Positions 36,545-57,851 of a DNA stretch of 64,000 nucleotides are shown piece after piece. Position 1 is the first letter of the stretch. Every line of letters begins with the position of its first letter. The notes beneath the pieces are model-generated. The model did no database searches, was not told the origin of the DNA, and saw nothing but the letters and a program-made list of their open reading frames with translations. Source of the DNA: Candidatus Moraniibacteriota bacterium (GTDB lineage: Bacteria; Patescibacteriota; Minisyncoccia; Moranbacterales; UBA1568); the NCBI GenBank assembly GCA_049290235.1, contig JBATNG010000045.1, positions 12,717 through 76,716 of the forward strand. Reading direction: 5' to 3'. A program made the translations under genes and the position numbers.

Positions 36545-37954
36545 TTAGCCGATTGAGCCTTTCATCTCTAAATTAATCAATCGGTTCAATTCGATCGAAT
36601 ATTCGAGGGGGATTTCCTTCACCACTGGATCGATGAAACCGTTGACGAGGAGCCCCTCAGCATCGCTCTGGGTGATACCGCGCGACATGAGATAGAAGAG
36701 CTTTTCCTCACCGATACGCTCGACCGTTGCCTCGTGTTCGACCGCGGCAGTCTCTTCGTTGATTCGCATCGTGGGGTACGTATCCGAGCGCGAGTGTTCA
36801 TCGAGGAGGAGCGCATCGCAGACGACAGATGCCCTGGCATTGGTCGCGCCTTGGGCGATGTGGACCAGGCCGCGGTACGAGGTACGGCCGCCGTCTTTGG
36901 AGATGGACTTGGAGACGACACGCGAAGTGGTGTCGGGCGCGAGGTGGACCATTTTCGCTCCCGCATCCTGGTGTTGGCCAGCACCGGCATAGGCGATGGA
37001 GAGCACCTCGCCCCGGGCGCCGCGGCCAGCGAGGTACACGGCCGGGTATTTCATCGTGACGCCACTACCAATATTGCAGTCGATCCACTCCATGACGGCA
37101 TTCTCTTCGGCCCGAGCCCGTTTGGTCACGAGGTTGTAAATGTTCTTCGACCAGTTCTGAACGGTCGTGTAGCGAACCCGAGCATTTTTTTTCACGAAGA
37201 TTTCTACGACTGCCGAGTGGAGCGAGCTCGACCGGTAGATCGGCGCGGTGCAGCCTTCGATGTAGTGGACCGAGCTGCCTTCCTCGGCGATGATGAGAGT
37301 GCGCTCGAATTGGCCAAACGATTCGGCATTGATGCGGAAATAGGCCTGGAGCGGCAGATCAACTTTGACACCTTTTGGGACATAGACAAAGGAGCCACCC
37401 GACCAGACCGCCGAATTGAGGGCGGCAAATTTGTTATCGTTGGGTGGGATGAGTTTACCCAAATACTCCTTCACAATTTTCGGATATTTTTTCACGGCGG
37501 TATCCATGTCACAGAAAATGACGCCGAGCTTAGTCAGTTCTTTGTGGACACTTTCATAGACGACTTCGGACTCGTACTGGGCGGAGACACCGGCGAGGAA
37601 ATTCTTCTCTGCTTCGGGCACGCCGATTTTGTCATACGTATCCTTGATCTCTTTCGGCAGGTCTTCCCAAGTTTGCGACTGCTGGTCGACCGCTTTCAGG
37701 TAATACGTGATGGCGTCAAAGTCGATACCCGAGAGATCAGCACCCCAGTCAGGCATCGGCTTAGCCAGGAAAGTCTGATAGCTCTTGAGTCGGAAGTCGC
37801 GCATCCATTTTCCTTCGCCTTTGACACCGGAAATCTCGCTGACCGTCGCAGCATCGAGGCCTAGGCTCGTCTTGTGGACGGAGCGCTCGGGCATGGAGAA
37901 ACCGAACTGGTAATCTCCGAGGTCGATATTTTTTTGGCTCGTTTTCTTGGACAT
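36545..37954 (-). CDS. sufB: Fe-S cluster assembly protein SufB
   Basis: Start at ATG 37954 (MSKKTSQKNIDLGDYQFGF). SufB motifs throughout (GLVHIAQGATNARASVVCDALLLDEHSRSDTYPTMRINEETAAVEHEATV). A 376-aa antisense ORF over the same span is rejected. Confidence 0.9.
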   Translation of the reverse strand: MSKKTSQKNIDLGDYQFGFSMPERSVHKTSLGLDAATVSEISGVKGEGKWMRDFRLKSYQTFLAKPMPDWGADLSGIDFDAITYYLKAVDQQSQTWEDLPKEIKDTYDKIGVPEAEKNFLAGVSAQYESEVVYESVHKELTKLGVIFCDMDTAVKKYPKIVKEYLGKLIPPNDNKFAALNSAVWSGGSFVYVPKGVKVDLPLQAYFRINAESFGQFERTLIIAEEGSSVHYIEGCTAPIYRSSSLHSAVVEIFVKKNARVRYTTVQNWSKNIYNLVTKRARAEENAVMEWIDCNIGSGVTMKYPAVYLAGRGARGEVLSIAYAGAGQHQDAGAKMVHLAPDTTSRVVSKSISKDGGRTSYRGLVHIAQGATNARASVVCDALLLDEHSRSDTYPTMRINEETAAVEHEATVERIGEEKLFYLMSRGITQSDAEGLLVNGFIDPVVKEIPLEYSIELNRLINLEMKGSIG

Positions 37955-38119
37955 TTCGTTCGATCGTTGATTTTCTTTCTTCAAACCTGTGAGGAATACC
38001 TCAGCGGTCTTCAAAAAGAAAACGCACGATCTGCTTATGAGGATAAGTCCGGCCATCTCTCCTCGTTCCTGTGAAGCGGACTTCAGCGGAACTCGCAATA
38101 ATGGCCGTTATAAATTGGT

Positions 38120-38857
38120 TTAGGAGAGATTTTCGAAACCCTTTTCTTCGATCTGTTTCGCGAGTGCGCTACGGCCGGTCTTTATGAGTCGGCCATCACG
38201 CAGTACCAGGACTTCATCGGGAGCGATCGTCTTCAGGAGCCGGGTCGAGTGCGTGATGAAAACACGCGTCGTTTCTTTGGGGAAATGTCGGTTCAGAAAT
38301 TTCGTGATCGTTTTCAGAGCATCGACATCGACACCGGTATCGAGCTCATCGAAAATGGCGAAGCGGGGAGCGAGGAGGACCGCCTGGAGGGCTTCGAGCT
38401 TTTTCTTCTCACCGCCCGAGAATCCAGCATTGAGTGAACGCTTCAAAAGCTCATCCTTGATATGGAGTTCCTGGGCATACTCGGCGACGAGCTGGTGGAG
38501 CTCCACCGGTTCGATCCGCTTCTCGAGCGCGAGTCGCAGCAACTCGAAGACGGTCACCCCGGCGAGTTCCATTGGCGTCTGAAAGGAGAGGAAGACACCG
38601 AGCCGGGCGCGTTCATCGGGGGAGAGATTCTTCAGGTTCTTCTTGCCAGTCGGGCGAGCGGGCTTGCCGACAAGCAACTTGGCATTCCGGGAAATAAGAT
38701 ACTTCGGGTGTCCCATGATAGCGCTGGCTAGAGTCGATTTGCCGGAGCCGTTCGGGCCCATGAGCGCATACGTCTTGCCCGCTTTGAAATCGAAAGAGAA
38801 ATCATGGAGGATCTTCTTGTCCTCGACGGAGACGGAGAGATTTTGGATGGTGAGCAT
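38120..38857 (-). CDS. sufC: Fe-S cluster assembly ATPase SufC
   Basis: Start at ATG 38857 (MLTIQNLSVSVEDKKILHDFSF). Walker A GPNGSGKSTL, ABC signature LSGGEKKKLE, Walker B FAIFDELDTGVD. The longer upstream extension is Arg/Ser-rich junk. Confidence 0.9.
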   Translation of the reverse strand: MLTIQNLSVSVEDKKILHDFSFDFKAGKTYALMGPNGSGKSTLASAIMGHPKYLISRNAKLLVGKPARPTGKKNLKNLSPDERARLGVFLSFQTPMELAGVTVFELLRLALEKRIEPVELHQLVAEYAQELHIKDELLKRSLNAGFSGGEKKKLEALQAVLLAPRFAIFDELDTGVDVDALKTITKFLNRHFPKETTRVFITHSTRLLKTIAPDEVLVLRDGRLIKTGRSALAKQIEEKGFENLS

Positions 38858-38861
38858 AGCG

Positions 38862-39266
38862 TTAGCGAGTGGTATGAGACAAATGTTCGAGTGAAATACC
38901 CGAGAGCGTTTCCTCGATCTTTTCTTCGAGCGTGCGCCAGACTTGATTGGTCTGGCAGTGGCTGACCTGGAGGCAGGGGAGAGAGCCTTTGATCGGCGGA
39001 GTGAACATCTCAATCGGACCATCAAGGACGCGGAGGATGTCCCAGACGTTTGTCGCCCGAGCGGATCGAGCGAGCAGATAGCCGCCGGCGACACCTTTGG
39101 TTGCCTCGACGATGCCGGCCTTCCGGAGCGCCTGGAGGATTTTCTCGAGGTAGTCTTCGGGGAGATGCTCGGACTCTGCCAGGGCGTGGATAGAGAGCGG
39201 CCGACCAGCCTGCACCAAGGCGATCGCGGCTCGGAGGCCGTAGTAAGCCTTTTTTGATACTTTCAT
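38862..39266 (-). CDS. Rrf2-family transcriptional regulator (IscR/SufR-like), first gene of the suf operon
   Basis: MKVSKKAYYGLRAAIALV...HTH...GIVEATKGVAGGYLLAR is the Rrf2 signature. Cys residues are present in the C-terminal part (CLQVSHCQ). Confidence 0.85.
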   Translation of the reverse strand: MKVSKKAYYGLRAAIALVQAGRPLSIHALAESEHLPEDYLEKILQALRKAGIVEATKGVAGGYLLARSARATNVWDILRVLDGPIEMFTPPIKGSLPCLQVSHCQTNQVWRTLEEKIEETLSGISLEHLSHTTR

Positions 39267-41015: not shown

Positions 41016-42068
41016 TTAGGCAGCGAGCTGCCAGGGGATGATCTCGCCGGCTCGGAAGGGAACAACGACGCTGTCGCCGAAGGGGAGCGAGTCAGGCACT
41101 TGCCACGGTTCACGGCGGAGCGTGACCGTATCGATATTCCTCGGCAGGCCGTAGAATCTCGCGCCGTAGATGCTGGCGAAGCCTTCCAGTTTATCGAGCG
41201 CGTTGGCTTGTTCGAAGGCTTCGGCATAGAGCTCGATGGCCGCGTGAGCCGTGTAGCAGCCAGCACAGCCACAAGCTGCTTCCTTGGTTCCCACCGCATG
41301 CGGCGCGGAGTCGGTACCGAGGAAGAACTTCGGATTGCCCGAAGTCGCGGCGCGAAGGAGTGCCCGGCGGTGTTCTTCTCGCTTGAGGACCGGCAGGCAG
41401 TAGTGATGCGGCCGCACCCCGCCAGCAAAGATGGCGTTGCGATTCAGCAGCAGGTGGTGCGCCGTGATGGTCGCGGCGATGTTCGGACCAGCGTCGGTTA
41501 CGAACTGCGCTGCCTCGCTTGTCGTGATGTGTTCGAAGACAATACGCAGACCTGGGAAGCGCTTGAGGAGCGGTGCCAGTACACGATCAATGAACACGTT
41601 TTCCCGGTCGAAGATATCGACTGTGGGATCGGTGACTTCACCGTGCACACAGAGCACCATATCTTCACGTTCCATTGCCCGGAGCACCGGATAGATGTTT
41701 TTGATATCCGTGACTCCATTCTCGCTATTGGTAGTCGCACCAGCAGGGTAGAGCTTACAGGCAACGATACCCGCTGCCAATGCTGGTCGGATGATGCTCG
41801 CCGGCGTCCGATCGGTTAGATAGAGCGTCATGAGCGGATTGAAGGTGCTGCCGTTGGGGAGCGCTGAGATGATGCGTCTCCCGTATGCGAGCGCCTGTTC
41901 GACGGTCGTGACCGGCGGCCTCAGGTTGGGCATGATGATAGCCCGACCGAAGCGGCGCGCCGTATCCGGCAGCACTGCGGCCAAGGCGAGGCCGTCGCGG
42001 AGGTGCAGGTGCCAATCATCGGGCCGGGTGATGGTGAGAGTCGTTGGATCGTAGACTTTCATTGCCAT
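41016..42068 (-). CDS. pyrC: dihydroorotase (homodimeric class II type)
   Basis: [12 protein letters not shown] at the N-terminus, plus the conserved FLGTDSAPH metal-binding motif. Confidence 0.9.
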
Positions 42069-42105
42069 GGTGATACTCCTTTCGGGTGGTGGGATGTTGC
42101 GGGGT

Positions 42106-43002
42106 TCAGATGAGGTTGGCGTACCCAGTCAGGATATGACCGAATACGTGCGGGTCTTCGGTGAAGAAATAGGCGGTGCCTACTTGTCCGCCGATGGCGC
42201 CCATCTTGAGACGGTCGTAGAGATGTTGACCTTCCGAGATGGCACCCACTGAGATGATCGGGTGATGAGGCAGTAGAGTGTGGAATTCCCTGAGCTCTTG
42301 TTCAGCGTACGGGCGGAGTTCAGTACCACCCATGCCGCCGACATTGATTACCTGATCATCAGATCTGAACGAGATGGCTGGTTTGCCATCCTCACGGATG
42401 AGACTGGTACTCGGTTTCGTGTTCGTGGTGAGGAGTGTCACTACCCAGGGTTTCAGAACAGAAGCGACCTCTCGGCGCAGCTCGTGCTTTTCTGCAAAGA
42501 GAGTGAGTTTCATGTGGACATCAATGATCCTGTAGCCTACAACGGCGAAGATGTCTTTCAGTTCGCGTTCGAGGCCACGAGGATCGTGGGAGATGATCTT
42601 CTTCTGTCGCCCTTGTACCCACACGTTCGGACAGCCACCGTTGAAGGTGATGAAGTCAACGCGAGCTTCGACGCAGAGTTGGCAGAGCTTTTCGGTGTCG
42701 CCCTGATCGATCGCCGCAATGTTTACGCCGAGTTTCTTGCCGTGAGCATGAGCAATTTCGATCATCTCAGGCAGAACACGTCGGTAATACTGTGCGCCAC
42801 CATTGTTCATTCCTAGCGCATTCACCGAGGTACCGTCAGTTCGTAGCCAGAGGATGTCGCCGACATTACCGGGGCGATCTTCCCATGTGATCGAGCCAAC
42901 TTCAATGTGAGTCACGTCAGTCCTGGTCGCGAGCTTTTTGACGTCTTCCAGGGTCTTGCAAGTACCTCCGGCGTTGCCGAAGAAGAATGGTTGAGGATCC
43001 AT
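42106..43002 (-). CDS. pyrD: dihydroorotate dehydrogenase (class 1-like)
   Basis: Start at internal Met ([17 protein letters not shown]). FNGGCPNV matches [14 protein letters not shown]...ISVGAISEG follow. The upstream ORF extension lacks similarity. Confidence 0.8.
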
Positions 43003-43124
43003 CAGGTGCTCCTTCCTTATGTGTTCAGTTGTCAAAGAGGGTATATCCTCAGCGTCGAGGATTGGCGGCATTGTATCAGCTCGGGAGAGGGTGTCAATTG
43101 TGCGCGCAGGGGGCAGATGGCGCG

Positions 43125-43154
43125 TTGAATCGACGGACAGTCCTATGGTATACT
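43125..43154 (+). promoter_or_regulatory. promoter with extended -10 (TGGTATACT) for the small-peptide/ftsB-like/ppiC transcription unit
   Basis: -35 TTGAAT (43125-43130), 18-nt spacer, TGGTATACT (43146-43154), then AGGAA 7 nt before ATG 43171. Confidence 0.55.
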
Positions 43155-43170
43155 GTCTCAGGAATAACCT

Positions 43171-43281
43171 ATGAGTTTCAAAGCGCGGCACAAGAAGATT
43201 TATTTTGCCTGGGTCATCATTTCGGCCCTCGTCGCCTTGTCCATGGTGCTGTTCCTGGTGGCGCCGTTTTTTCTCTACTAG
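43171..43281 (+). CDS. small hydrophobic peptide (36 aa), putative
   Basis: MSFKARHKKIYFAWVIISALVALSMVLFLVAPFFLY: a basic N-terminus plus one TM helix. It has a good SD and promoter and ends 2 nt before the ftsB-like start. It is below the 60-aa cutoff of the ORF track. Confidence 0.45.
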   Translation: MSFKARHKKIYFAWVIISALVALSMVLFLVAPFFLY

Positions 43282-43283: not shown

Positions 43284-43679
43284 ATGAGCTGGCGCTCGCC
43301 GTGGGTCCGCCTGGGGATTAGCGTGATGCTCGGGATCACGGCCTGGGCCGGCTGGGCCAGTTTCCAGCAGTATGAGCGCAGCGTCCGAATCCAGCAGGAG
43401 ATCGATGTCTTGAAACGCGAGGCGGAGCGCGTCGCGCGGGAGAATGAAACCCTGTCGCAAAAGATCCAGTACTTCGCATCGCCTGATTTCAAGGAAGAAG
43501 AAGCGAAAGAGAAGCTCGGACTCAGGCGGCAAGAGGAACAGGTGATCGCGATCGATGGCGATGTGCGACTCGTCCCAGAACCAGAGCTCCAAGCCGCGGG
43601 CACGATCGAACGAGTGGGGTGGCAGACACCCAACTACCGGAAGTGGTGGAATCGTTTCTTCAATCACAGCGCGCAATAA
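43284..43679 (+). CDS. septum formation initiator (FtsB/DivIC-like) protein
   Basis: N-terminal TM helix (RLGISVMLGITAWAGWASF), then the coiled coil QQEIDVLKREAERVARENETLSQKIQYFASPDFKEEEAKEKLGL characteristic of FtsB/DivIC. Confidence 0.7.
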   Translation: MSWRSPWVRLGISVMLGITAWAGWASFQQYERSVRIQQEIDVLKREAERVARENETLSQKIQYFASPDFKEEEAKEKLGLRRQEEQVIAIDGDVRLVPEPELQAAGTIERVGWQTPNYRKWWNRFFNHSAQ

Positions 43680-43691: not shown

Positions 43692-44747
43692 ATGGCCGAA
43701 GTCGAACTGCCGATCAAACCGTTCAAGCCCCAATGGCCGAAAATCGTGCTCGCGGTGTTTGTACTGGCGGTGGTGCTCGCGATCGGTGTCCTGGTTTTGG
43801 TCTACAAAAAGCCGGAAAGCGCAATCGGAGCGATGCTGGCGAACCGCTTCCCTTTCCCATTGGTCCTGATCGGCCAGGGCGTGGCGGTGACGACCGAGGG
43901 GCTGGCTGAAAACCGCGAGGCGCTTCGGAATTTCTATGAATCGCAGGATTTCGCCGGTCTCGGGATGCGGGTTGATTTCACGACCGACGATGGCAAGAAA
44001 CGGTTGAAGATCCGCGAGAAGGATCTGATCAATAAAATGCTCGAGGACAAGGCGATCGAACTCCTCGCTGGGAGACGGGGCATCGCAGTGACCAGCGATC
44101 AAGTCGCCAGTGAGACGACCGTGAAGATGAAAGAACTCGGCACGACGGACAAAGTCGAGGAGACGCTCGCTCGGCTGTATGGCTGGACCATCGCTGATTT
44201 CCAAACTCAGGTCGTCCGTCCGGCGATGTATGAAGCGGCGCTTTTCCAGACGTACCAGTCTGAAGTCGATCAAACCGCGGCCAAGGACAAAATAGAGGCA
44301 GCAGAAAAGGCTCTCAAGACAAAGAAGCCGTTTGATGAGGTCGCGCGGAGTTTCTCACAAGGTGAGACGAGGGCCGCCGGCGGTGACCTTGGCTGGTTCC
44401 GGCTCGAGGATCTCGCCCCAGAGCTCCGGAGCCCGGTCGACAATGCCCAGCTCAAGATCCCGACGGACATCGTCGAGAGTCCGCTCGGCTATCATATCCT
44501 GCTCGTGGAGGACACGAAGCTCGAAGATGATGTACGCCGCTATCATATCCGGCAGATCTTCACGCGCAAGCTGAGTTTCGCTGATTGGCTCGCAGGAGAG
44601 TTACGCCAGTTGCCCGTGAGTGTCATTTCCGATGACTATGAGTGGCAACGTGATGCGGCGCGGATCGAATTCCGCTCGGCCGAGATGCGGGCCTTTGAAG
44701 TAAAACTGCGCGAGAATGCCAAGAGCGATCCTTCGCTTATTTTCTAA
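43692..44747 (+). CDS. membrane-anchored parvulin-type peptidyl-prolyl isomerase (PpiC/SurA-like)
   Basis: N-terminal TM helix. Parvulin domain GGDLGWFRLEDLAPELRSPV...PTDIVESPLGYHILLVED. The 331-aa antisense ORF 43278-44273 is rejected. Confidence 0.8.
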   Translation: MAEVELPIKPFKPQWPKIVLAVFVLAVVLAIGVLVLVYKKPESAIGAMLANRFPFPLVLIGQGVAVTTEGLAENREALRNFYESQDFAGLGMRVDFTTDDGKKRLKIREKDLINKMLEDKAIELLAGRRGIAVTSDQVASETTVKMKELGTTDKVEETLARLYGWTIADFQTQVVRPAMYEAALFQTYQSEVDQTAAKDKIEAAEKALKTKKPFDEVARSFSQGETRAAGGDLGWFRLEDLAPELRSPVDNAQLKIPTDIVESPLGYHILLVEDTKLEDDVRRYHIRQIFTRKLSFADWLAGELRQLPVSVISDDYEWQRDAARIEFRSAEMRAFEVKLRENAKSDPSLIF

Positions 44748-44765: not shown

Positions 44766-46049
44766 ATGTCTGATGAACAGCGCGATTTTTCTGTCCCTGC
44801 GGGGGCGTCCGAGGAACGGATCGCTCGACCGGTGACGCGGCGAGAGCAAACGCCGTGGCTGCGGATACTGCTACTTTCATTTGTCTTCGGACTGACCGGT
44901 GGGATGCTCTCGCGTCCCGATGCGCTCGTGAGTCTCGTGAAATACTTCCGTTCCGAAGGGCCATCCAAGACGGTCAGTCAGGTACCGTCGCTCGAATCCG
45001 TGCCACTCGAGGACCGAGCAATCGTCGGAGTCGTGGAGCGCGGGTCGCCAGCGGTGGTGAGCATTGTCATCACCAAGGATGTGCCGAAGGTGCGAAACTC
45101 TTTCCGCTCTCCATTTGGCCTCCCGTTTTTCAGTAATCCCTCCGACCCAGCGGATGATGGCAGCGGAGCCTCTACCAAACAGACGGTCGGGAACGGATCG
45201 GGTTTTCTCGTGAGTTCGGATGGCTATATCGTCACGAACAAGCATGTCGTCTCGGATGCGAAGGCGGAGTACACGGTCATCACGAGCGACAAGAAGGAAT
45301 ACCCGGCGACGGTCCTCGCGCTCGATCCCGTGAATGATGTTGCGGTGATCAAGGTGAACGGCGATGCGTTCCCGGCCCTCTTACTCGGTGATTCGGATAC
45401 GATCCGGGTGGGACAGACAGCGATCGCGATCGGCAATCCGCTGGGGGAATTTGCGAACTCGGTCTCGCGCGGTATCATTTCCGGTCTCAAGCGGCAAGTC
45501 ACGGCTGGTGTGACATTCGGCCAAGAGGAAGTCCTCCGCGATATCATCCAGACGGACGCAGCCATCAATCCGGGGAATTCCGGCGGTCCACTCCTCAACC
45601 TCGCGGGCGAAGTGATCGGCGTCAATGTCGCGGTCGCGCAGGGGGCGGAGAATATCGGTTTCGCGATTCCCGTGAACCAAATCAAGCGGGCCGTGGACGA
45701 GGTGAAGCGGACGGGGAAGATCGCCGTTCCGTATCTGGGGGTACGCTACATCCTCCTGGATGAGGGGATCGCGAAGGCGGCTGGTCTGCCGGTCACGTAT
45801 GGTGCGCTGATCCAGCGGGGACAGACGATCACGGATCTCGCTGTCGTCCCGGGATCGCCGGCGGACAAGGCTGGCCTCCTAGAGAATGACATCATCCTCG
45901 AAATCGATGGGAAGAAGATCGACAGCGAGCATCCGCTCGCGAATATCATCGGCAGCCATCAGGTTGGTGACACAGTGGAACTGAAGATTCTCCATCAAGG
46001 CGATGAGGAAACCCGATCCGTCAAGTTAGAGGAGCGAAAGATCCAGTAA
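44766..46049 (+). CDS. htrA: HtrA/DegP-family serine protease with PDZ domain
   Basis: Catalytic triad in context: IVTNKHVV (His), NDVAVIKV (Asp), INPGNSGGPLLN (Ser). C-terminal PDZ domain (GALIQRGQTITDLAVVPGSPADKAGLLENDIILEIDGKKI). Confidence 0.9.
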   Translation: MSDEQRDFSVPAGASEERIARPVTRREQTPWLRILLLSFVFGLTGGMLSRPDALVSLVKYFRSEGPSKTVSQVPSLESVPLEDRAIVGVVERGSPAVVSIVITKDVPKVRNSFRSPFGLPFFSNPSDPADDGSGASTKQTVGNGSGFLVSSDGYIVTNKHVVSDAKAEYTVITSDKKEYPATVLALDPVNDVAVIKVNGDAFPALLLGDSDTIRVGQTAIAIGNPLGEFANSVSRGIISGLKRQVTAGVTFGQEEVLRDIIQTDAAINPGNSGGPLLNLAGEVIGVNVAVAQGAENIGFAIPVNQIKRAVDEVKRTGKIAVPYLGVRYILLDEGIAKAAGLPVTYGALIQRGQTITDLAVVPGSPADKAGLLENDIILEIDGKKIDSEHPLANIIGSHQVGDTVELKILHQGDEETRSVKLEERKIQ

Positions 46050-46070: not shown

Positions 46071-46826
46071 ATGATTTTCCACTTCACGGTATTTGGGTTT
46101 TCACTCGTTTTTTTCGGCATGCTCACGTATCTCGTGCGCGATCCGATTATCCCGTCTTGGCCGTGGTACAGCCTCTCACTCTTGGTGTTCGTGATGCTGT
46201 CCATGGCGGCCTCGCGGAAACTTACCGGCAAGTGGTACCCGGCCTTCTTGCCGGGCGTGGTAGCGTTCAGTACGCTCCTTCTCATTTCACTTATCGACGT
46301 GGCCTTCGAACAGCAGGTATTCATCTGGGTGGCGACGATTCTGTTTTATGCTTCGCTCCTCGGCATTTATCGGTTGAAGCTCATCCCGACGGATGAGACT
46401 GCTCGAGCACTGCTCAAGACGGCGGCCTTGGCCAGTCTCTTCTTCACCTATGCGGCGGCGTACGGCCTGTATCTCAATTATGACGTGCCCTTGACGCTCC
46501 TCATGCTCGTCTTTTTTCTGGCGGCATCGATCGTCGCATTCCAGACCCTGTATTGGGCGGGTCGGGACGATAGCCGTGAGGTGTTGTTGACGTCGCTTGC
46601 TCTCGGAACCGTGATGGGGGAACTCATCTGGGCGATCCATTTTTGGCCTTTCGGCTACCTCACCATCGGTTCCGCGATGCTGATATTTTTCTTCTTGCTC
46701 TGGCGCCTCATCCTGGACCTCTTGCGAGAGGGTTTAGTCTGGAGGCGACTCTTGGGCCAAGGGGTCATCCTCGTACTCCTCCTCATACTGCTCTTGGTCA
46801 CATCACCTTGGCGGATGCAGGCCTGA
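46071..46826 (+). CDS. hypothetical integral membrane protein
   Basis: 251 aa with about 7 TM helices. No family recognised. It sits between the two HtrA paralogs. Confidence 0.5.
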   Translation: MIFHFTVFGFSLVFFGMLTYLVRDPIIPSWPWYSLSLLVFVMLSMAASRKLTGKWYPAFLPGVVAFSTLLLISLIDVAFEQQVFIWVATILFYASLLGIYRLKLIPTDETARALLKTAALASLFFTYAAAYGLYLNYDVPLTLLMLVFFLAASIVAFQTLYWAGRDDSREVLLTSLALGTVMGELIWAIHFWPFGYLTIGSAMLIFFFLLWRLILDLLREGLVWRRLLGQGVILVLLLILLLVTSPWRMQA

Positions 46827-46827
46827 G

Positions 46828-48045
46828 ATGCTGCATTGCCGAAAGAGGAGAAGCGTGCTACAATCTCGTCGATTCACTATGGTTACCCCTCCTCAATTCT
46901 GGCGGTTTCTCCGCTTGGCCGGTCTCTTCGTCCTCCTCGTCCTCGTGGCGGGTGTGTCCGGGGCGTTCTTGTATTCTGCGATTGCTCCGAGACTTTCGAC
47001 GTGGTCGTGGACGGCCGGCATCCGGTGGCCCGGTTTGTCTGACACAGCACCTACGATTATCGAGCGGACCGAACAGGTTGTGCTCTCCCAGGAGGAAGGT
47101 CTTGAACGGTTCATCGGTGCTCCGCGGGCTTCGATCGTCAGTATTGTCTCGGTTTCGGTTGAGCCGATGGCGCGGACACTCGCGGGCACTCCGGCTCGTG
47201 AGATGTCGGGAGTCTTGGTCACCAATGACGGACTGGTGGCGACCTATTCGGCCCAGGCACCACTCTCTGAAAATCGACGGTTCACCGTGTTCTTCGCTGA
47301 TGGGAACGTCTCGGGAGCGCAGTTTGTCGCGTACGATCCAGTGGTCCATGTCGCCTATTTTCGAACCGAGCGCGCTGATACACCGGCGCTGGCCTTCACC
47401 AATTCTTCGGATACCCGACCGGGCCGACGCTTCATGGTATTGGCCGGGACCGAGGACCCGGATGAAGGACGACTGACAACTGGCTATATCGGCGAGCGAG
47501 CGCGGACGTTCAATCTGTCGGCGAAGACAGTCAGTTCAGCCGATGAGTGGGAAGGAGTGTTCCTCCCGGATCGGCCGATCGACCCTGGATTTATCGGCGG
47601 AGCGGCGGTGGCGATGAACGGCGAATTGATCGGGCTCATCGGTACGCTCACAGTGGATGCGACTGAACGAGCGTTCATCCTCCCGGCGAATGCACTTCGA
47701 CAGTCGCTTGGACGCGTGATTGGTGGCGGGTTGCCGGCGCGAGCCAATATCGGAGCGTATTATGTCTCGCTCACCAAGGAGACGGCGCTCTCGCTTCGGA
47801 TTTCACGAGACCAGGGCGCCCTCATCTACACCCCATCGGAGCGGTCCGGCCTGGCTGTCCTCTCGGGGTCAGCGGCCGAGCGCGCGGGGCTACGCTATGG
47901 CGATATCGTCACCGCTGTGAATGGACAGGCCATCACACTTGATCGGCCATTTTCGGTGGCACTCTATGAGGCGGCGACGGATGCCGATGCCTCTCTGACC
48001 GTACTCCGGAGCGGCAATGAAGTGACTCTCACGCTGTCTCGTTAA
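46828..48045 (+). CDS. HtrA-like pseudoprotease (trypsin-fold + PDZ, catalytic triad lost)
   Basis: It aligns with the upstream HtrA, but His becomes Ser/Ala (LVATYSAQ), Asp becomes His (VVHVAYF) and Ser becomes Ile (IDPGFIGGAAVAMNGELIGLIG versus INPGNSGGPLLNLAGEVIGV). It has an N-terminal TM anchor and keeps a PDZ-like C-terminus (GLRYGDIVTAVNGQAI). Confidence 0.65.
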   Translation: MLHCRKRRSVLQSRRFTMVTPPQFWRFLRLAGLFVLLVLVAGVSGAFLYSAIAPRLSTWSWTAGIRWPGLSDTAPTIIERTEQVVLSQEEGLERFIGAPRASIVSIVSVSVEPMARTLAGTPAREMSGVLVTNDGLVATYSAQAPLSENRRFTVFFADGNVSGAQFVAYDPVVHVAYFRTERADTPALAFTNSSDTRPGRRFMVLAGTEDPDEGRLTTGYIGERARTFNLSAKTVSSADEWEGVFLPDRPIDPGFIGGAAVAMNGELIGLIGTLTVDATERAFILPANALRQSLGRVIGGGLPARANIGAYYVSLTKETALSLRISRDQGALIYTPSERSGLAVLSGSAAERAGLRYGDIVTAVNGQAITLDRPFSVALYEAATDADASLTVLRSGNEVTLTLSR

Positions 48046-48068
48046 CCCTTGTTTCGGACATTTCTTTA

Positions 48069-48090
48069 AGGCTTGAAAAGGCCTTTTTTC
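48069..48090 (+). terminator. terminator-like hairpin before the proS promoter
   Basis: AAGGC-TTGAAAAG-GCCTT followed by TTTTTTCTTT. Confidence 0.45.
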
Positions 48091-48119
48091 TTTGACATGG
48101 CCGTGGGCATTCCGTACAA
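48091..48119 (+). promoter_or_regulatory. sigma70 promoter for proS
   Basis: -35 TTGACA (48091-48096), 17-nt spacer, -10 TACAAT (48114-48119). Confidence 0.65.
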
Positions 48120-48143
48120 TGAAGGAAATTATATCCTCTGCCT

Positions 48144-50114: not shown

Positions 50115-50621
50115 ATGTTCGCGCGTATCTTTGGCGAGCTTGGGAAAGACGATAGCGCTCTCGCGGGCGGGAAAGGGGCGTCCTTGGGGGACTTGGTGGA
50201 AGTGGATGCGGATCGAGGAGTGGTGCGGGTGATTGAGCGAGCTAAGGAACAAACGATGCATGTGAGCGGGAAGGAACCGATTTTCACTCAGACTGGGAAA
50301 GTACTCAGGGGCAGTAGACAGGCGAAGACACTCGGGTTTCCGACCGCCAATATCCCTTACGAACGGGAGGATATCGCGGGCACCTATGCTGGACAAGTAA
50401 CGGTACATGGGGCAGTCTATAAAGCGGCTGTGTATGCCGACCCCAAGCGGGGACTGCTCGAGGCTCATCTCTTCGGGTTCTCGGGTGATCTGTATGGCGA
50501 AGAAATTCGCATCACCCTCCTGGCGAAAGTCGCGGAAGCTGCTGAATTCACACCGGAAACTGATGCCCGAGAATTCATTATTCAGGTTGTGCAGAAAGTG
50601 AAGGATTATTTTCAGATCTAG
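50115..50621 (+). CDS. riboflavin kinase (stand-alone RibF C-terminal domain)
   Basis: GKVLRGSRQAKTLGFPTANI...GTYAG...VYKAAVY...LEAHLFGFSGDLYGEEIRITL are flavokinase motifs. There is a 47-aa N-terminal extension of unknown function. No adenylyltransferase domain in this ORF. Confidence 0.8.
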   Translation: MFARIFGELGKDDSALAGGKGASLGDLVEVDADRGVVRVIERAKEQTMHVSGKEPIFTQTGKVLRGSRQAKTLGFPTANIPYEREDIAGTYAGQVTVHGAVYKAAVYADPKRGLLEAHLFGFSGDLYGEEIRITLLAKVAEAAEFTPETDAREFIIQVVQKVKDYFQI

Positions 50622-50634
50622 AGACCCATTTTTT

Positions 50635-51228
50635 ATGTTCACTGGCATCATCGAAGCAGTAAAACCCGTGCTCTCGGTTCAGGACAAAGACGGCTCTCGT
50701 CACGTCCGGATCGGGAAGCCGAGGAATTGGAAACTTCGGAAAGGGCAGAGCGTCTCGATCGATGGAGTTTGTACGACGGTAGTGAGTCAGAGCCCGGTCG
50801 CTTTCAATGTCGAGTATATGCCGGAAACATTGTCCAAGACGACTATGCAGTTTGTCGAGCGCGGAACGGAGCTCAATCTGGAGCGGTCTGTGACGCTGCG
50901 ATCACCCTTGGATGGCCATCTCATTCAGGGGCACGTCGATAGTTCGAGTGAGGTCGTATCAATTGTGAAAGTCCATGGGAAACATGAAGTGACCGTGAAC
51001 ATTCCGCCGGCATTGAAACCGTATATCGCTTCACACGGTGCGATTACCGTCAATGGTGTCAGCCTCACTGTGGCGCGTAAAACGGAGCGGACGTTTACAG
51101 TGGCGCTCATTCCATATACTCTGCGGCATTCGAACCTGCAATTATTGGAAGAGGGGAGTGTGGTGAATCTCGAGGTGGATCTCTTGGCCCGCTATGTGGT
51201 GAACGCCCTCGGAAAGAGTAATCATTGA
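50635..51228 (+). CDS. ribE: riboflavin synthase (alpha subunit)
   Basis: Two lumazine-binding repeats: MFTGIIE...SIDGVCTTVV and LIQGHVDSSSEVV...ITVNGVSLTVA. Confidence 0.9.
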   Translation: MFTGIIEAVKPVLSVQDKDGSRHVRIGKPRNWKLRKGQSVSIDGVCTTVVSQSPVAFNVEYMPETLSKTTMQFVERGTELNLERSVTLRSPLDGHLIQGHVDSSSEVVSIVKVHGKHEVTVNIPPALKPYIASHGAITVNGVSLTVARKTERTFTVALIPYTLRHSNLQLLEEGSVVNLEVDLLARYVVNALGKSNH

Positions 51229-51240
51229 CGAATCAATCCT

Positions 51241-51702
51241 ATGCAAAGGAAACGCAGTGTCAGTCGCACCAACAGGAGGGATGCCTCGCGGCTCAGAGTC
51301 GGAATTGTTGTCTCGCCTTACTATGAGGCAATCGCAAAAAAGCTCCTTCGGGGTGCATTGGCGGAGCTCGGAGAGTGGAGGGTGGAGAAGAAGAATATCT
51401 TTGTGATGCAAGTTTCGGGAAGCTTCGAAATCCCTTATGGTTGTGTCTCACTGATGAAGCAGCATCGGCCGGATGTAATTGTCACGCTTGGTTGTGTTGT
51501 GAAGGGTGAGACCAACCATGACCAGATCATCGCTCAGGCAGTGGCCCAAGGGCTCGTCGACCTGACGATCAAGTATGAGATCCCGATTACGCTCGGCGTG
51601 TTGACGGTCAACACACTCGAACAGGCGAAAGCCCGATCGACACCGGGGAATAACAAGGGTCGGGAAGCGACGGCGGCCGCGCTTGAAGCAGCACTCCTCT
51701 AG
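51241..51702 (+). CDS. ribH: 6,7-dimethyl-8-ribityllumazine synthase
   Basis: RVGIVVSPYYEAIAKKLL...VSGSFEIPYG...VVTLGCVVKGETNHDQIIAQ. Confidence 0.9.
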   Translation: MQRKRSVSRTNRRDASRLRVGIVVSPYYEAIAKKLLRGALAELGEWRVEKKNIFVMQVSGSFEIPYGCVSLMKQHRPDVIVTLGCVVKGETNHDQIIAQAVAQGLVDLTIKYEIPITLGVLTVNTLEQAKARSTPGNNKGREATAAALEAALL

Positions 51703-51704
51703 CT

Positions 51705-52151
51705 CTATCGGGAGATCCTCTTCTTTTCATCGGACTTGTGTAGCAGACTAGACTTGAATCTCTTCGGTTGATGGGGACTGAGGAATTGGAAGGGCTGTTT
51801 GATTTGAGTGAGGCTTTCGGCCATCCGCTCCTGGTCATAGCCAAGGAAGACTATGTCTGGTGAGTGGTCTCGGAGGACGCGCCACTTTCCGATAGTTCGA
51901 TCGCTCGGGACGATGTGGGCATGATCCAGGAAACCTCGAATGGCATTCATCCGGACGCGGGTACCGTGCCGGGGAGCATGTCCCTTGAGCTTCCGGACGA
52001 TACTTGTCCGAGCGACTACCACAACGAGCTTCTCGCAGGATTGAGCCGCTTCGAGAAGGAAATTCTGATGTCCGGGATGGAGTCCATCAAAGACACCGAA
52101 GACCATACCGAGTTTACAGGGGCGGGATTTTTGGGGCATAGTGTTTCTCAT
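51705..52151 (-). CDS. cytidylyltransferase-like nucleotidyltransferase, probable FMN adenylyltransferase (RibF N-terminal domain homolog)
   Basis: MVFGVFDGLHPGHQNFL carries the GxFDGxHxGH motif of FAD synthetase. DIVFLGYDQ follows. The start may be Met-16 (52106). Confidence 0.6.
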   Translation of the reverse strand: MRNTMPQKSRPCKLGMVFGVFDGLHPGHQNFLLEAAQSCEKLVVVVARTSIVRKLKGHAPRHGTRVRMNAIRGFLDHAHIVPSDRTIGKWRVLRDHSPDIVFLGYDQERMAESLTQIKQPFQFLSPHQPKRFKSSLLHKSDEKKRISR

Positions 52152-52266: not shown

Positions 52267-53229
52267 ATGAATTCTATCAAGAAAGTCCTCATTGCACAGC
52301 CGCACGGGTTTTGTGCGGGGGTCGCTCGAGCGGTGAAGGCGGTGGAGGATACGCTGGCGATATTCGGTGCGCCGGTGTATGTGAAGCATGAGATCGTCCA
52401 CAACAAGCATGTGGTCGATGCGATCACGAAGCAAGGCGCGATCACGGTCGAAACACTCGAGGAAGTGCCGGAGGGTTCGGTGGTCATCTTCTCCGCCCAC
52501 GGTTCGCCGCGCGCTCATTATGAGGTAGCCCGAGAGCGCCAGCTCCATCTCATCGATGCGACCTGTCCGCTGGTGACCAAAGTTCACCTCGAAGTGTTGC
52601 GTTTCATCAAGGAAGGCTATGGGGTCGTGTACATCGGCCACCGCGGTCATATCGAGGGTGTCGGGGTGCTCGGTGAAGCGCCAGGTGTCAGTATTCCGGT
52701 GGTTGAGACGGTCGCAGATGCTGAAGCTTTGACGCTCCCTGAAAGTGAAAAGATGGTCTATCTCACGCAGACGACCCTCTCTATCGATGAGACCCAAGAC
52801 GTCATCGCGGCACTCCGAAAGAAATATCCCCAGATCGTCGCTCCGCCGCTTGAAGATATCTGCTATGCGACAACCAATCGCCAGGAGGCAGCCAAAGCAC
52901 TCGCAAAGACCGTCCCCGTCGTGATCGTCGTCGGATCGGTGACCTCGTCCAACTCCAATCGTTTACGCGAGACGGCCGAGCAAGCCGGTGCCCGGGCCTA
53001 CCTGGTTGATGATGCGAGCGACCTTGAAGCCGCGTGGTTTGATGGCGTTTCAATAGTTGGCGTGACTGGTGGGGCGAGTGCACCCGAGGATCGGATCCAG
53101 ACTGTGATCGACTACTTCACCGGACAAGGGGCGGTCGCCGAACGATTCTCGGTGAAGGAAGAAAAGATGTTCTTCGCGGAACCGGTGGAACTCATGCAGA
53201 TCCGTCGAGAGAGAGCAGCGAAGGTATGA
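52267..53229 (+). CDS. ispH: 4-hydroxy-3-methylbut-2-enyl diphosphate reductase
   Basis: PHGFCAGVARAV, SAHGSP, DATCPLVTKVH, TNRQEAAKALA and GSVTSSNSNRL track E. coli IspH throughout, including the three cluster-ligating Cys. Confidence 0.9.
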   Translation: MNSIKKVLIAQPHGFCAGVARAVKAVEDTLAIFGAPVYVKHEIVHNKHVVDAITKQGAITVETLEEVPEGSVVIFSAHGSPRAHYEVARERQLHLIDATCPLVTKVHLEVLRFIKEGYGVVYIGHRGHIEGVGVLGEAPGVSIPVVETVADAEALTLPESEKMVYLTQTTLSIDETQDVIAALRKKYPQIVAPPLEDICYATTNRQEAAKALAKTVPVVIVVGSVTSSNSNRLRETAEQAGARAYLVDDASDLEAAWFDGVSIVGVTGGASAPEDRIQTVIDYFTGQGAVAERFSVKEEKMFFAEPVELMQIRRERAAKV

Positions 53230-54947: not shown

Positions 54948-56102
54948 TTAGGGTGTGACGAATCCAAAACGCGCGAGGATACGCTGTTTTATTTTAGAGA
55001 GGAGGGTGGTGAAGTTGTCAGCATTGAGGCGGGTTTCAAAACTGAGAGTCAGGGTTGCGATATCGATATCGGTGTCGTGGTCCGAAAGGGTGATGGTATA
55101 GTCCGATCCAACGACTCCATCAAGGCTGTCGAGCGAGGCAGTGCAGTCGAGCGCACGCGGGAGGAGACCAGCAGTCGCGTCGCAGCGGGCGGTCAATCGA
55201 CTGCCGGATTCACTGACGAGGATCGGGTGAGTCCGTGCCGTGAGGAAATCATGGTAGGGGCCAGGACTGACAGGTAGACGATGACCTCCTTCGATGAGGG
55301 AGAGAGTCTTGGAGTCTTGATCTTCGAAGAGTGTACCATCGGGATGAACAGCACCCATGAGGAAGATGCGGCCGCGTTTGTAAATTCCCAAATCTTCTTC
55401 GTTTACCGGGAGCACGTCTTCGAAATGGTAACCCAACGCGAGGAAAATCTCAGCGCTGCCGATCGGACGGATTTCTGTCTCGCTCGTGACGATATAGACA
55501 CCATCGGCGAACGAGAGGAGCGACCCAAGTCGGAACCCGAGAAAGTCCGAAGCGATAGTGAAGCCGTCTCGCCAAGCAATTGATTCTTCGCGGGCGGCAG
55601 CAGCAGGATAGCGGGAGAGGAAAGCCGCGTCGCTGATATAGGGATGCAGCTGGCCGTCTCTCAGCGCGTAGTATGTCCCAGCGATACGGTAGAGTTCTGC
55701 GGCGGGGAAATCCGTGAGGGTCGCTCCGACAGGGAAGAGGTAGGCACGATAGCCTTTCTGGATGGTTGCTTCGATGTGGTTGGGTGTCTCGGATTGTTTC
55801 TCGAGATCGACGCTGAGTGCGAGATGCGAGAAATCACCGAGCGGGCTGGTGTTGGCGACGAGTTGACCGCCGGTTTCGAGCTTGCCATTCGTTCGTGGTG
55901 TACCGGTTTCGGCGCGCGGGTCGAAGATCTGATTGCGGCTGGATTTCGGATTCCGGAAGTCAAAGCTGGTTGTCATCGTCGGAAATAGGAAGGTATAGGC
56001 GAGTGCGATACCGGCGAGCGCGAAACCGACCGCGAGTGTGATGCGGAGTTTGATGTAGAGCGGCCGGAGGGGTTCGGGAATGGGGGCGAAGGGCGGTTGC
56101 AT
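54948..56102 (-). CDS. hypothetical membrane-anchored protein
   Basis: 384 aa. N-terminal TM helix (LRITLAVGFALAGIALAYTFLF), then a large soluble domain with no recognised family. Co-oriented with the GT-C-like gene. Confidence 0.5.
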   Translation of the reverse strand: MQPPFAPIPEPLRPLYIKLRITLAVGFALAGIALAYTFLFPTMTTSFDFRNPKSSRNQIFDPRAETGTPRTNGKLETGGQLVANTSPLGDFSHLALSVDLEKQSETPNHIEATIQKGYRAYLFPVGATLTDFPAAELYRIAGTYYALRDGQLHPYISDAAFLSRYPAAAAREESIAWRDGFTIASDFLGFRLGSLLSFADGVYIVTSETEIRPIGSAEIFLALGYHFEDVLPVNEEDLGIYKRGRIFLMGAVHPDGTLFEDQDSKTLSLIEGGHRLPVSPGPYHDFLTARTHPILVSESGSRLTARCDATAGLLPRALDCTASLDSLDGVVGSDYTITLSDHDTDIDIATLTLSFETRLNADNFTTLLSKIKQRILARFGFVTP

Positions 56103-56111: not shown

Positions 56112-57851
56112 TCAGTCAGTTATCTCAAAGAGGATGGCGTCTCGCGTGACGGTCTGTCTGATGGGCCGGGCGAAAGGTCTCGGGGCGGTGAGTGTCGGCC
56201 AGACGAACGAGAGTACTTCGACGGGGAGTAGGCGGTCTCCGAAGGTGGCAGCGAATTGACCGACGGTGTCCTCGGTCGTCAACAGATAGACGCGGTCAAA
56301 GGCGTTCCGATCGAGTCGGGCATAATCTTCGGGATTGAAGAAATAGGCTGCGGATTTCCCATCGAGGCTCATGAGCGGTCCGGCGATCATCGCAAAGGGG
56401 TCACCGGAGGATTCACGATCGATGAGGATGAGATCACGGGCGGTGAATTGGTCACCGAAGTTTTCCGCCTGAGCGCGGAGGGTCTGGTACTCGATCACTG
56501 AGAGGGCCTGGTAGGCTGGCCAGCACTGGAGGACAAAGAGCAAGCCGAAGCCGATGAGGGCGATAGTGTGTTTCCGAGGAGTGTGGATTCTCTCGATCAT
56601 CGACTGCCACAATACAATGGTCGCGAGCAAGAAAAGTGGGAAGAGCGTAAAGACATAGCGGCGCAAGAGCCACGGGTGATCGTCGGAGATATGACCATCG
56701 AAGAGATAGACGAAGGTCGGGAGTGCGAGCAGCACCGGGATGAGAAGTGCGAAACGGCGTCGCATGATACCGAAGGCAAGCGATGCCAAGCCGAGAATGA
56801 AGACAGGAAACAGCCCGTAGGAAATGAGGATCGGTCCGAGTCGTGGCTCTCCGCTCCCTGTGCCGGCGATGCCGAGGGTGTGCCAATATTTTAGGGCCGC
56901 TTTGCCGATCATGGTGTAGAACGGCAGATTCATGAAAAGATCGCGGAGGAAGAGAAAGCCGAGGAAGAGGAGGACGGGGATGGCCCAGACCTTGGGGAGG
57001 GCGAAGAGGTGGGCGCGCAGTTTGGGATGCCAGAGGATAAACCCGAGCGCGAGCGGCGCGATGACGAAGCCCTCGATGCGCGTCAGGGCGAGGAGAAACC
57101 CGGTGATGAGAAGACAAGGGAGGACTCGTCGATCATCTTCGCGCGCGAGGCGGATGAGTGCGACCGTGAGCGTGAGAAAGAGGAGGAGCGCGAGATTTTC
57201 CGTCAGCGTCATCTGGGTGAGCCAGACCGTGAAGAAGGATGTCGAGAAGAGAGCTGTCCCAAAGAGCGCGGTGTGGCGGGTCACGAAGAGGGAGCCGAGA
57301 TCGAAGAATGTCCAACTGGAGAGAATGAAGAGCAGCGCGTTGGCGATAAGGAGACCGGTCGGGCCGAACCACTGCACAAAGAGCGCGAGGTATGAGATGT
57401 AGCCGAGTGGGAATTGAGTGATGAGTGCCCCGCTTTCGGTGTAGGAGAAGCCGGGGAAGTTGAGTGCGCGACCAGGACCATAGATGGCAAAGAAAGCGTC
57501 AGAGACAGGTGTCCGGAAGGCGAGCTCATGACCGTGCGCGAGTTCCCAGGCGGCGAGAGCGATTGATCCTTGATCGCGGCCGGTGAAGACAGTTGGCTCG
57601 GTTCGAAGGGCGATGAGTAGGGCGAAGAGCACCAGCGCACCGATGAGACCGAGTCGTGCCCAGTCACATTCCTGATACAGCACGAATAATGCCAGACCAA
57701 AACCGCCCAAGAGCAGTCCACCAGCCACCCAGGTCAGTGCCGGATAGAACCAGCCGAACAGCGCGAGCGCGAGCGCGAGGATGAGGGCGAGGACGAAACC
57801 AGAGAGGGCGATGAGCCAAGGCGAGCGGGTCCAGAGACGGGATGGATTCAT
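56112..57851 (-). CDS. large polytopic membrane protein, putative GT-C-fold glycosyltransferase (ArnT/PMT-like)
   Basis: 579 aa with about 12 TM helices in the N-terminal two-thirds and a soluble C-terminal domain. The topology suggests dolichyl/undecaprenyl-phosphate-sugar-dependent transferases. Assignment by architecture only. Confidence 0.4.
   Translation of the reverse strand: MNPSRLWTRSPWLIALSGFVLALILALALALFGWFYPALTWVAGGLLLGGFGLALFVLYQECDWARLGLIGALVLFALLIALRTEPTVFTGRDQGSIALAAWELAHGHELAFRTPVSDAFFAIYGPGRALNFPGFSYTESGALITQFPLGYISYLALFVQWFGPTGLLIANALLFILSSWTFFDLGSLFVTRHTALFGTALFSTSFFTVWLTQMTLTENLALLLFLTLTVALIRLAREDDRRVLPCLLITGFLLALTRIEGFVIAPLALGFILWHPKLRAHLFALPKVWAIPVLLFLGFLFLRDLFMNLPFYTMIGKAALKYWHTLGIAGTGSGEPRLGPILISYGLFPVFILGLASLAFGIMRRRFALLIPVLLALPTFVYLFDGHISDDHPWLLRRYVFTLFPLFLLATIVLWQSMIERIHTPRKHTIALIGFGLLFVLQCWPAYQALSVIEYQTLRAQAENFGDQFTARDLILIDRESSGDPFAMIAGPLMSLDGKSAAYFFNPEDYARLDRNAFDRVYLLTTEDTVGQFAATFGDRLLPVEVLSFVWPTLTAPRPFARPIRQTVTRDAILFEITD

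Follow-up and report, generated by a model that had tools for sequence, protein, structure and literature searches.

A triad-less HtrA homologue conserved in Moranbacteria and encoded directly downstream of a DUF5656 membrane protein

The HtrA-like gene and its catalytic positions

We analyzed a 64,000-nucleotide (nt) stretch of DNA from a Candidatus Moraniibacteriota bacterium (GenBank assembly GCA_049290235.1, contig JBATNG010000045.1, positions 12,717 to 76,716; hereafter the window). An open reading frame (ORF) at 46828..48045 (+) of the window encodes a 405-amino acid (aa) protein related to serine proteases of the HtrA family, here called the dead HtrA. An earlier note, made from the letters of the DNA, had described it as a membrane-anchored HtrA paralogue with all three catalytic positions substituted, encoded close to an intact HtrA that it might assist or regulate. 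The ORF proved to be real and the loss of the catalytic triad to be conserved, and gene order points to the DUF5656 membrane protein encoded immediately upstream, rather than to the active HtrA, as the closest partner. The features of the gene are listed below; residue numbers refer to the 405-aa ORF unless stated otherwise.

46879..48045 (+): HtrA-like gene whose product is predicted to be catalytically dead; first ATG of the ORF at 46828, with the 388-aa form fitting the length of the orthologues
46915..46971 (+): transmembrane anchor, residues 13-31 of the 388-aa form, from hydropathy; helix 5-39 in the AlphaFold2 (AF2) model
47206..47637 (+): degenerate trypsin-like (S1C) domain, Pfam Trypsin_2, residues 127-270
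47251..47256 (+): position of the catalytic His, Ala142 (MAFFT) or Gln143 (BLASTP), with no His in either alignment
47347..47349 (+): His174 in place of the catalytic Asp; 78 of 94 orthologues have Asn here
47503..47562 (+): block with the highest conservation among the dead HtrAs, RTFNLSAKTVSSADEWEGVF, where HtrAs have sensor loop L3; invariant residues N229 and E242
47593..47595 (+): Ile256 in place of the catalytic Ser, within GFIGGA (GNSGGP in the active paralogue); Val, Ile or Leu in most orthologues
47725..48042 (+): PDZ domain with the carboxylate-binding loop NIGAYY retained; Gly and second Tyr family-invariant

Three start codons are candidates, at 46828, at GTG 46855 and at ATG 46879, of which the latter two give proteins of 388-396 aa. 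A Shine-Dalgarno-like AGAGGAG is found at 46845-46851, 4-10 nt 5' of GTG 46855. Since the orthologues have 385-390 aa and are alignable from Met18 of the 405-aa ORF, the true start is probably ATG 46879 or GTG 46855. A promoter-like site at 46836-46864 (+) (TTGCCG-17-TACAAT with an upstream TG, 9/12 matches) overlaps the 5' end of the long ORF and ends shortly before ATG 46879. It is a consensus match only and could be an internal promoter of the dead HtrA gene.

Searches of Pfam with the dead HtrA recover Trypsin_2 (E 3e-10, 41 bits, compared to 128 bits for the neighbouring HtrA), as well as PDZ_2 and PDZ_6. An AF2 model built on 38 orthologues has a predicted local distance difference test (pLDDT) score of 83.7, and its best matches in the Protein Data Bank (PDB) found by Foldseek are DegP, Mycobacterium tuberculosis HtrA, MucD and DegQ (E 1e-20 to 1e-23). 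Moreover, a profile of the dead family compared to PDB chains hits DegP at E 4e-35. Thus, the HtrA-type trypsin fold and the PDZ domain are kept, as previously proposed, and the PDZ loop retains its hydrophobic-Gly-hydrophobic pattern with an invariant Gly and Tyr in the family alignment. Membrane anchoring was likewise borne out by the single hydrophobic helix. Because Arg residues precede this helix, the protein is predicted to have its N-terminus in the cytoplasm and its domains outside.

The dead HtrA aligns with the HtrA encoded at 44766-46049 over 274 aa with 26% identity (BLASTP, E 2e-21). The counterparts of His160, Asp191 and Ser272 of the active paralogue are Ala142/Gln143, His174 and Ile256, respectively, in agreement with the earlier claim that all three catalytic positions are substituted. 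The register was read from BLASTP, from a 113-sequence MAFFT alignment, from a MAFFT alignment with 150 representatives, from small curated alignments and from a hidden Markov model (HMM)-to-PDB alignment against DegP-like chains. BLASTP, both MAFFT alignments and the HMM-to-PDB alignment all put non-catalytic residues at the three positions, which rules out that the triad is rescued by re-alignment; the independent profile-to-PDB alignment has the same register. Sequencing errors do not account for the substitutions either, since a partial protein in NCBI from a Candidatus Moraniibacteriota metagenome-assembled genome (MAG) is identical to the dead HtrA (P0001) and all orthologues are triad-less.

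Conservation of the loss and shift of constraint

A word-indexed search returned 95 proteins at 227-761 bits, and the next matches were canonical HtrAs at 66 bits or less. None of the 94 orthologues of the dead family has His in the His column, where Asn, Glu, Thr, Asp and other residues are found instead. The Asp column contains Asn in 78, His in 8 and Asp in 2 of them. Most residues in the Ser column are Val, Ile or Leu; 13 orthologues have Ser there, never together with His. Canonical HtrA matches in the same alignment have H/D/S in 17-18 of 19 cases. When the 50%-identity representatives were searched exhaustively, 10,524 of them matched, and the triad classes were read among the best 150 of these: all 41 full-length representatives of the dead class are triad-defective, and 70/72 of the canonical class have H/D/S. 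Finally, a one-genome-per-species scan found 161 matching stretches, from which 80 loci, almost all of them in Moranbacteria, were kept. Each of the 80 loci has an intact full-length triad-less ORF.

The nucleophile and oxyanion motif G-N-S-G-G-P is absent as well: the window protein has GFIGGA, and the consensus of the dead family is F-x-G-G-P. The loop carrying this motif shows low conservation in the dead family and is near-invariant in 46 active paralogues. With TIGR02037, a multi-PDZ model with a cut-off of 416 bits, the dead HtrA reaches 85 bits, and it stays below the cut-off of every equivalog. The active neighbour (303 bits) does not reach the TIGR02037 cut-off either. The dead HtrA thus appears to be an S1C homologue by fold that lacks the features defining S1C peptidases as catalysts, and we infer that it has lost the ability to cleave peptide bonds.

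To map constraint, 81 dead and 46 active paralogues from the same genomes were aligned. The active proteins have nearly invariant TNKHV, D.A and QTDAAINPGNSGGP segments and a conserved long LA loop (PFG.PFF). The counterparts of these segments in the dead proteins are degenerate or shortened, and the N-terminal region of the dead proteins has diverged. Constraint has shifted from the catalytic loops to the block at the L3 loop (RTFNLSGKTVASSEKWEGVF), to an N-terminal TEQVV motif and to the PDZ domain. The L3-position block of the family, RTFNLSGKTV-AS-SEKWEGVF, is one residue longer than its equivalent in active HtrAs. The TEQVV motif, in full T-x-I-x-K-T-E-Q-V-V, lies just outside the membrane; GVLxTNDGLVxTY is also conserved, as are LGxYY, DRGALIY and GSPAExAGLRxGDII in the PDZ domain.

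The ratio of nonsynonymous to synonymous substitution rates (dN/dS, NG86) is 0.03-0.11 for 14 close orthologue pairs of the dead HtrA, which shows strong purifying selection and hence a functional gene. Values for the active HtrA (0.015-0.17) and for DUF5656 (0.02-0.09, with one outlier of 0.84 at a dS of only 0.04) are similar. Median identity to the window protein is 38% for the dead HtrA, 41% for DUF5656, 43% for PpiC and 57% for the active HtrA; the dead HtrA therefore evolves faster than its active paralogue.

This faster evolution, the Ser at the nucleophile position in 13/94 orthologues and the His at the Asp position of the window protein would suit a protein that is still an enzyme by way of non-canonical residues, or else a decaying pseudogene. 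We regard both as highly improbable. The His at the Asp position recurs in 8/94 orthologues only. The family alignment contains no invariant His, Cys or Lys anywhere, and an alternative catalytic centre is therefore unlikely; the invariant Ser, Asp and Thr residues are structural and common to active HtrAs. Decay is excluded by the dN/dS values and by the intact ORFs in 80/80 loci. Conserved triad loss, intact ORFs and purifying selection together indicate that the dead HtrA and its orthologues are probably functional pseudoproteases of the HtrA family.

Linkage to DUF5656 and candidate roles

In the window the gene order is DivIC-like, PpiC, HtrA, DUF5656 and dead HtrA, all on the forward strand and separated by gaps of 12-52 nt. 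These neighbours and the sites flanking them are:

43125..43154 (+): promoter-like site before the five genes; consensus match only
43284..43679 (+): DivIC/FtsB-like septum protein; start uncertain, as the ORF opens at 42987, where it overlaps the divergent dihydroorotate dehydrogenase gene
43692..44747 (+): membrane-anchored PpiC-type (PrsA/SurA-like) peptidyl-prolyl isomerase
44766..46049 (+): intact membrane-anchored HtrA with TNKHV, D191 and GNSGGP
46071..46826 (+): polytopic membrane protein DUF5656 (PF18900), 9 modelled helices, predicted N-in/C-out, directly upstream of the dead HtrA
48068..48095 (+): terminator-like hairpin and T-run, 23 nt past the dead HtrA stop
48092-48120: promoter-like site (11/12) after the hairpin and before the gene for prolyl-tRNA synthetase (ProRS)

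The five genes form one apparent operon, and no sigma or anti-sigma genes were found in it by the annotation of the window. Their identities agree with those given before, including the DivIC/FtsB-like protein, the PpiC rotamase and the intact HtrA; only the neighbour previously counted as a 7-transmembrane protein differs, since DUF5656 is modelled with 9 helices. In many other Moranbacteria a gene for a canonical ClpB (870-881 aa) is inserted between the active HtrA and DUF5656 (e.g., L001 2502-5147 and L085 3364-5979), which places a cytoplasmic disaggregase within an otherwise extracytoplasmic quality-control operon. The window has no ClpB at this position. Some Moranbacteria loci (L082) also carry a gene for a ferredoxin-like (Fer4) protein of 59-60 aa after PpiC.

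DUF5656 is recognized by its Pfam model with 36.7 bits against a gathering threshold of 23.3, and 41/42 of its homologues match. Applying the positive-inside rule gives the N-in/C-out topology. The conserved motifs YGxYLNFxVPL, E184..W187..FWPFGYLT and W247 are thereby predicted to be on the outside face, and YRLxxxPxDxTARA on the cytoplasmic face. In 180/185 sequences the protein ends exactly 4 residues past a near-invariant Trp (W-x-x-x-V/A/I), with V, A, I, G or L at position 0 and I, M, P or L at position -2. In its residue pattern this tail resembles a PDZ ligand. The tails in clades outside the Moranbacteria differ (WTY, WIAH, WGV). The literature searched contained no mention of DUF5656 and no described function for it, and a search on HtrA proteins in bacteria of the candidate phyla radiation (CPR) retrieved nothing relevant; its linkage to HtrA-like genes appears to be undescribed.

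The linkage is nearly complete. In 72/73 related loci the gene directly upstream of the dead HtrA, on the same strand, is DUF5656, and the median distance between the two is about 70 nt. The pairing is kept at 25-27% identity to the window protein (P0146, P0151, P0133), which makes a relic of synteny limited to a single shallow clade unlikely, and it is also recovered when distant DUF5656 genes are taken as the starting point. An active-type HtrA is found within 5.5 kb upstream of the dead HtrA in 42/60 related loci, often with a ClpB of 870-880 aa between it and DUF5656, and ProRS follows the dead HtrA within 400 nt in 38/74. Across 34 distant genomes the dead HtrA diverges in step with DUF5656 (r = 0.73) and with PpiC (r = 0.62), but its divergence hardly correlates with that of the active HtrA (r = 0.27), for which the partial correlation given DUF5656 is -0.14. 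Such correlations are confounded by phylogeny and are weak evidence, pointing in the same direction as synteny. On these grounds the closest partner of the dead HtrA would be DUF5656 and not the active HtrA.

The association with DUF5656 extends beyond the triad-less proteins. Directly downstream of DUF5656 on non-Moranbacteria contigs we found HtrA-like proteins with partial triads (P0200, Glu/Asp/Ser; P0166, Ser/Glu/Ser) and with intact ones (P0202, with TNKH, DPLLD and SHSGSP; P0165, with KHV, DLAF and NFGNSGGP). P0163 likewise has an intact triad, and the truncated ORF upstream of it ends in a DUF5656-like tail. Like the Moranbacteria proteins, the P0202-like group has an N-terminal L-x-P-Y-L linker and a short LA loop, but it is without the L3 block; 26/30 of the representatives closest to it are triad-defective. 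Because triad-intact and partly degenerate relatives are DUF5656-linked too, the dead HtrA is a member of a separate DUF5656-associated subfamily and not a recent dead copy of its neighbour. In the most economical reading of these sequences, the ancestral module consisted of DUF5656 and an active anchored HtrA, and catalysis later became dispensable in many lineages. Its loss would have become complete in Moranbacteria, where a canonical HtrA is kept separately.

Two further features of the non-Moranbacteria DUF5656 loci were of note. A DUF5679 gene of 49-53 aa precedes DUF5656 in several of them (L086 271-429, L089 3052-3207, L091 1554-1715, L095 1894-2043), and genes for Wzz/GNVR-like proteins and GT4 glycosyltransferases follow the HtrA-like gene. 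The latter neighbours hint at a link to surface polysaccharide assembly.

The proposal that the protein serves as chaperone or regulator of its active paralogue stands as far as it posits a pseudoprotease, while the link to the paralogue is not specifically supported. The dead HtrA would in that case act mainly on the active one, by forming mixed oligomers or by allosteric activation or restraint, comparable to the promotion of MamE-dependent proteolysis by MamO. In the window the two genes share one apparent operon, and an active-type HtrA is encoded upstream in 42/60 related loci. Moreover, MamO/MamE and MamE1/E2 testify to the repeated evolution of active/inactive HtrA pairs (PMC4794232), and in the account given of DEG7 its degenerate protease domain serves oligomerization (PMC3194040). 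The linkage to the active HtrA is, however, clearly weaker than the 72/73 found for DUF5656, and ClpB separates the active HtrA from the DUF5656-dead HtrA pair in many genomes. No divergence correlation with the active HtrA is left once DUF5656 is accounted for, which speaks weakly against such a role, and DUF5656 linkage defines the subfamily even where the linked HtrA is active. The dead family furthermore lacks the long LA loop and has a diverged N-terminal region. We consider a role centred on the paralogue unlikely.

It is less probable still that the protein works on its own as a chaperone or holdase of exported proteins, independently of proteolysis, and that DUF5656 is found next to it by mere conserved synteny. 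In favour of this, the PDZ domain and the general architecture of the cleft have been kept, the operon also encodes a PrsA-like peptidyl-prolyl isomerase and an HtrA (plus ClpB in relatives), and a proteolytically inactive Bacillus subtilis HtrA is described as engineered for better bacterial fitness and enzyme yield (PMC10715036). An adjacency in 72/73 loci, with short gaps and down to 25% identity, despite rearrangement of every other neighbour, is nevertheless hard to explain without functional coupling.

We think it probable, with some reserve, that the dead HtrA is a functional pseudoprotease that acts as extracytoplasmic binding subunit of a DUF5656 module in an envelope quality-control operon. 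It would have been retained as a dedicated partner of the DUF5656 protein encoded immediately upstream, with which it may form a membrane complex, the conserved L3 surface contacting DUF5656. Using its PDZ domain and inert substrate cleft, it would bind and not cut unfolded exported polypeptides or C-terminal peptides, and so might serve as adaptor, holdase or sensor in the DivIC-PpiC-HtrA-(ClpB)-DUF5656-dead HtrA operon, with proteolysis left to the canonical HtrA of the same operon. More speculatively, because the fixed-length, hydrophobic and predicted-outside C-terminal tail of DUF5656 looks like a PDZ ligand, the PDZ domain of the dead HtrA might dock on it.

Several observations weigh against this picture, or at least against an exclusive pairing. 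One of the 73 loci, L072, is rearranged and has an aspartyl/asparaginyl-tRNA-synthetase-like gene upstream of the dead HtrA. A true DUF5656 gene (51.6 bits) in L094 has no HtrA-like neighbour, so that the pairing is not absolute, and no DUF5656-HtrA fusion was found among the homologues listed, about 215 clusters. Distant members break the rule for the tail, L081 ending in WYPVISRN and L082 in WMPNIY. Mutual information between the DUF5656 tail and columns of the dead HtrA is dominated by phylogeny, and its top columns lie outside the PDZ domain. Finally, the DUF5656 model resembles no solved structure and shows no recognizable fold or family relative.

The case of L094 bears on the division of labour as well: since DUF5656 is found there without an HtrA, it would have a function of its own, to which the HtrA-like protein is accessory. 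A metagenome scan for non-Moranbacteria DUF5656 loci confirmed at least two loci. The DUF5656 members without an HtrA-like neighbour, which belong to other lineages and have the tail ...TSWGV, are at L094 2437-3210, between YebC-RuvC and an XerC/D-like integrase gene, and at L093 833-1684.

A bolder version of the favoured reading, possible yet in our view doubtful, is that DUF5656 and its HtrA-fold partner constitute an unrecognized two-protein envelope machine of CPR bacteria (Patescibacteria). In it, a 9-helix membrane protein of novel fold would have a trimeric HtrA/PDZ ectodomain for its extracellular receptor or gate, which might be PDZ-docked on the DUF5656 tail. If such a machine exists, the repeated loss of the triad, complete in Moranbacteria, would mean that the HtrA module is essential for binding or scaffolding and not for proteolysis. 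Its recurrent neighbours, DivIC, the PrsA-like isomerase, HtrA and ClpB in Moranbacteria and the Wzz/GNVR-like and GT4 genes in other lineages, would then connect it with surface proteins or surface glycans, in their biogenesis or their quality control.

The wider window and comparison with known systems

A further ORF at 57781-60411 (+) encodes an 876-aa Clp/Hsp100-like AAA+ protein with hydrophobic N-terminal segments (residues ~60-200). It is not the canonical ClpB of the related loci. Its first AAA+ module is degenerate (Walker A GDPGIGKRS, 25% identity to ClpB D1). The second module alone is well conserved (40% identity; Pfam AAA_2 and ClpB_D2-small), and Pfam reports no Clp_N or AAA_lid_9 match. 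A membrane-anchored Clp-like ATPase whose D1 ring is dead is one possibility for this protein. Two large ORFs next to each other, at 54948-56102 (-) and 56112-57851 (-), encode 384 and 579 aa, respectively, and neither matches a Pfam family at E <= 1e-5.

GC content is 0.448 at window positions 6001-8000 compared to about 0.53-0.58 elsewhere, and this segment, which could be inserted or foreign, lies beside tRNA-Gln at 8243-8315 (-), the sole tRNA gene in the window. The window also contains biosynthetic genes that are notable for a CPR bacterium, at 41016-43191 (-), 50115-52151 and 52267-53229: a dihydroorotase-like amidohydrolase, dihydroorotate dehydrogenase, riboflavin kinase, riboflavin synthase (lumazine-binding domain), lumazine synthase, a cytidylyltransferase-like protein and IspH/LytB. 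SufB/D, a cysteine desulfurase and a SufC-like ABC ATPase are encoded at 34694-39094. Among the relatives, many Moranbacteria-like MAG contigs are deposited as 'uncultured Bdellovibrionales bacterium' and others as Undibacterium or Fimivivens; given their gene content, these names are probably taxonomic mislabels or the contigs mis-binned.

CPR bacteria have tiny genomes and are likely episymbionts that use the cell surface as an interface. A dead enzyme kept under strong selection in such genomes therefore suggests an important non-catalytic job at the cell surface. The public annotation of these proteins as 'S1C family serine protease' is almost certainly wrong as a statement of function across Moranbacteria, and it inflates the protease inventories of CPR bacteria. 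The pairing with the dead HtrA moreover offers a first functional handle on DUF5656. Finally, the series from intact through partial to fully lost triads within one subfamily amounts to a natural experiment in the change from protease to pseudoenzyme, comparable to MamE/MamO but with a sequence diversity that far exceeds theirs.

The existence of a pseudoprotease is not surprising in itself. HtrA-family pseudoproteases already described include MamO, inactive copies of MamE, triad-mutated Deg proteins of plants and the degenerate DEG7 domain (PMC4794232, PMC3473262, PMC3194040). By analogy, the closest precedent of the dead HtrA would be MamO/MamE. MamO and inactive MamE likewise combine an HtrA fold with a clade-conserved degenerate triad, an active paralogue encoded nearby and a polytopic membrane module (PMC4794232). 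In both systems catalysis has been lost repeatedly. They differ in that the membrane domain of MamO, which we take to be TauE-like, is part of the same polypeptide and that MamO binds metal through a di-His site, whereas the membrane partner of the dead HtrA is the product of a separate gene, DUF5656. The dead HtrA has no NCBIfam MamO match at E <= 1e-3 and no conserved His pair, it keeps its PDZ domain, and its conserved novelty is the L3-loop block. A MamO-like TauE link for DUF5656 was rejected, as no Pfam similarity was seen even at E <= 10 across 42 members.

Compared to the canonical proteins, which are the membrane-anchored HtrAs with a single PDZ domain in monoderm bacteria (M. tuberculosis HtrA/PepD, B. 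subtilis HtrA/HtrB) and Escherichia coli DegP/DegQ/DegS, the dead HtrA has the same fold and the same order of transmembrane anchor, protease and PDZ domain. It also shares the retained PDZ carboxylate-binding loop and the context of an envelope quality-control operon. Unlike them, it is without His/Asp/Ser and GNSGGP, its LA loop is short, and it has a family-specific invariant L3 motif. The output of DegS, site-1 cleavage of an anti-sigma factor, has no equivalent here, as the catalytic residues are missing and the operon holds no sigma or anti-sigma genes. For the stand-alone holdase considered above, DegP S210A or the engineered inactive B. subtilis HtrA would be the comparable proteins. 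The accounts of plant Degs describe AtDeg16, the second domain of AtDeg7 and several rice, moss and Chlamydomonas Degs as having mutated triads and being predicted inactive (PMC3473262, PMC3194040), in which they resemble the dead HtrA. As presented in these accounts, they differ from it in being eukaryotic, organellar and soluble, in having no dedicated membrane partner gene, and in that their losses are mostly scattered and do not form a lineage-wide orthologous family. Three things appear to be new: the presence in CPR bacteria of a dead HtrA that is lineage-wide and under strong selection, the nearly obligate coupling of this protein to DUF5656, and the graded loss of the triad within the DUF5656-linked subfamily.

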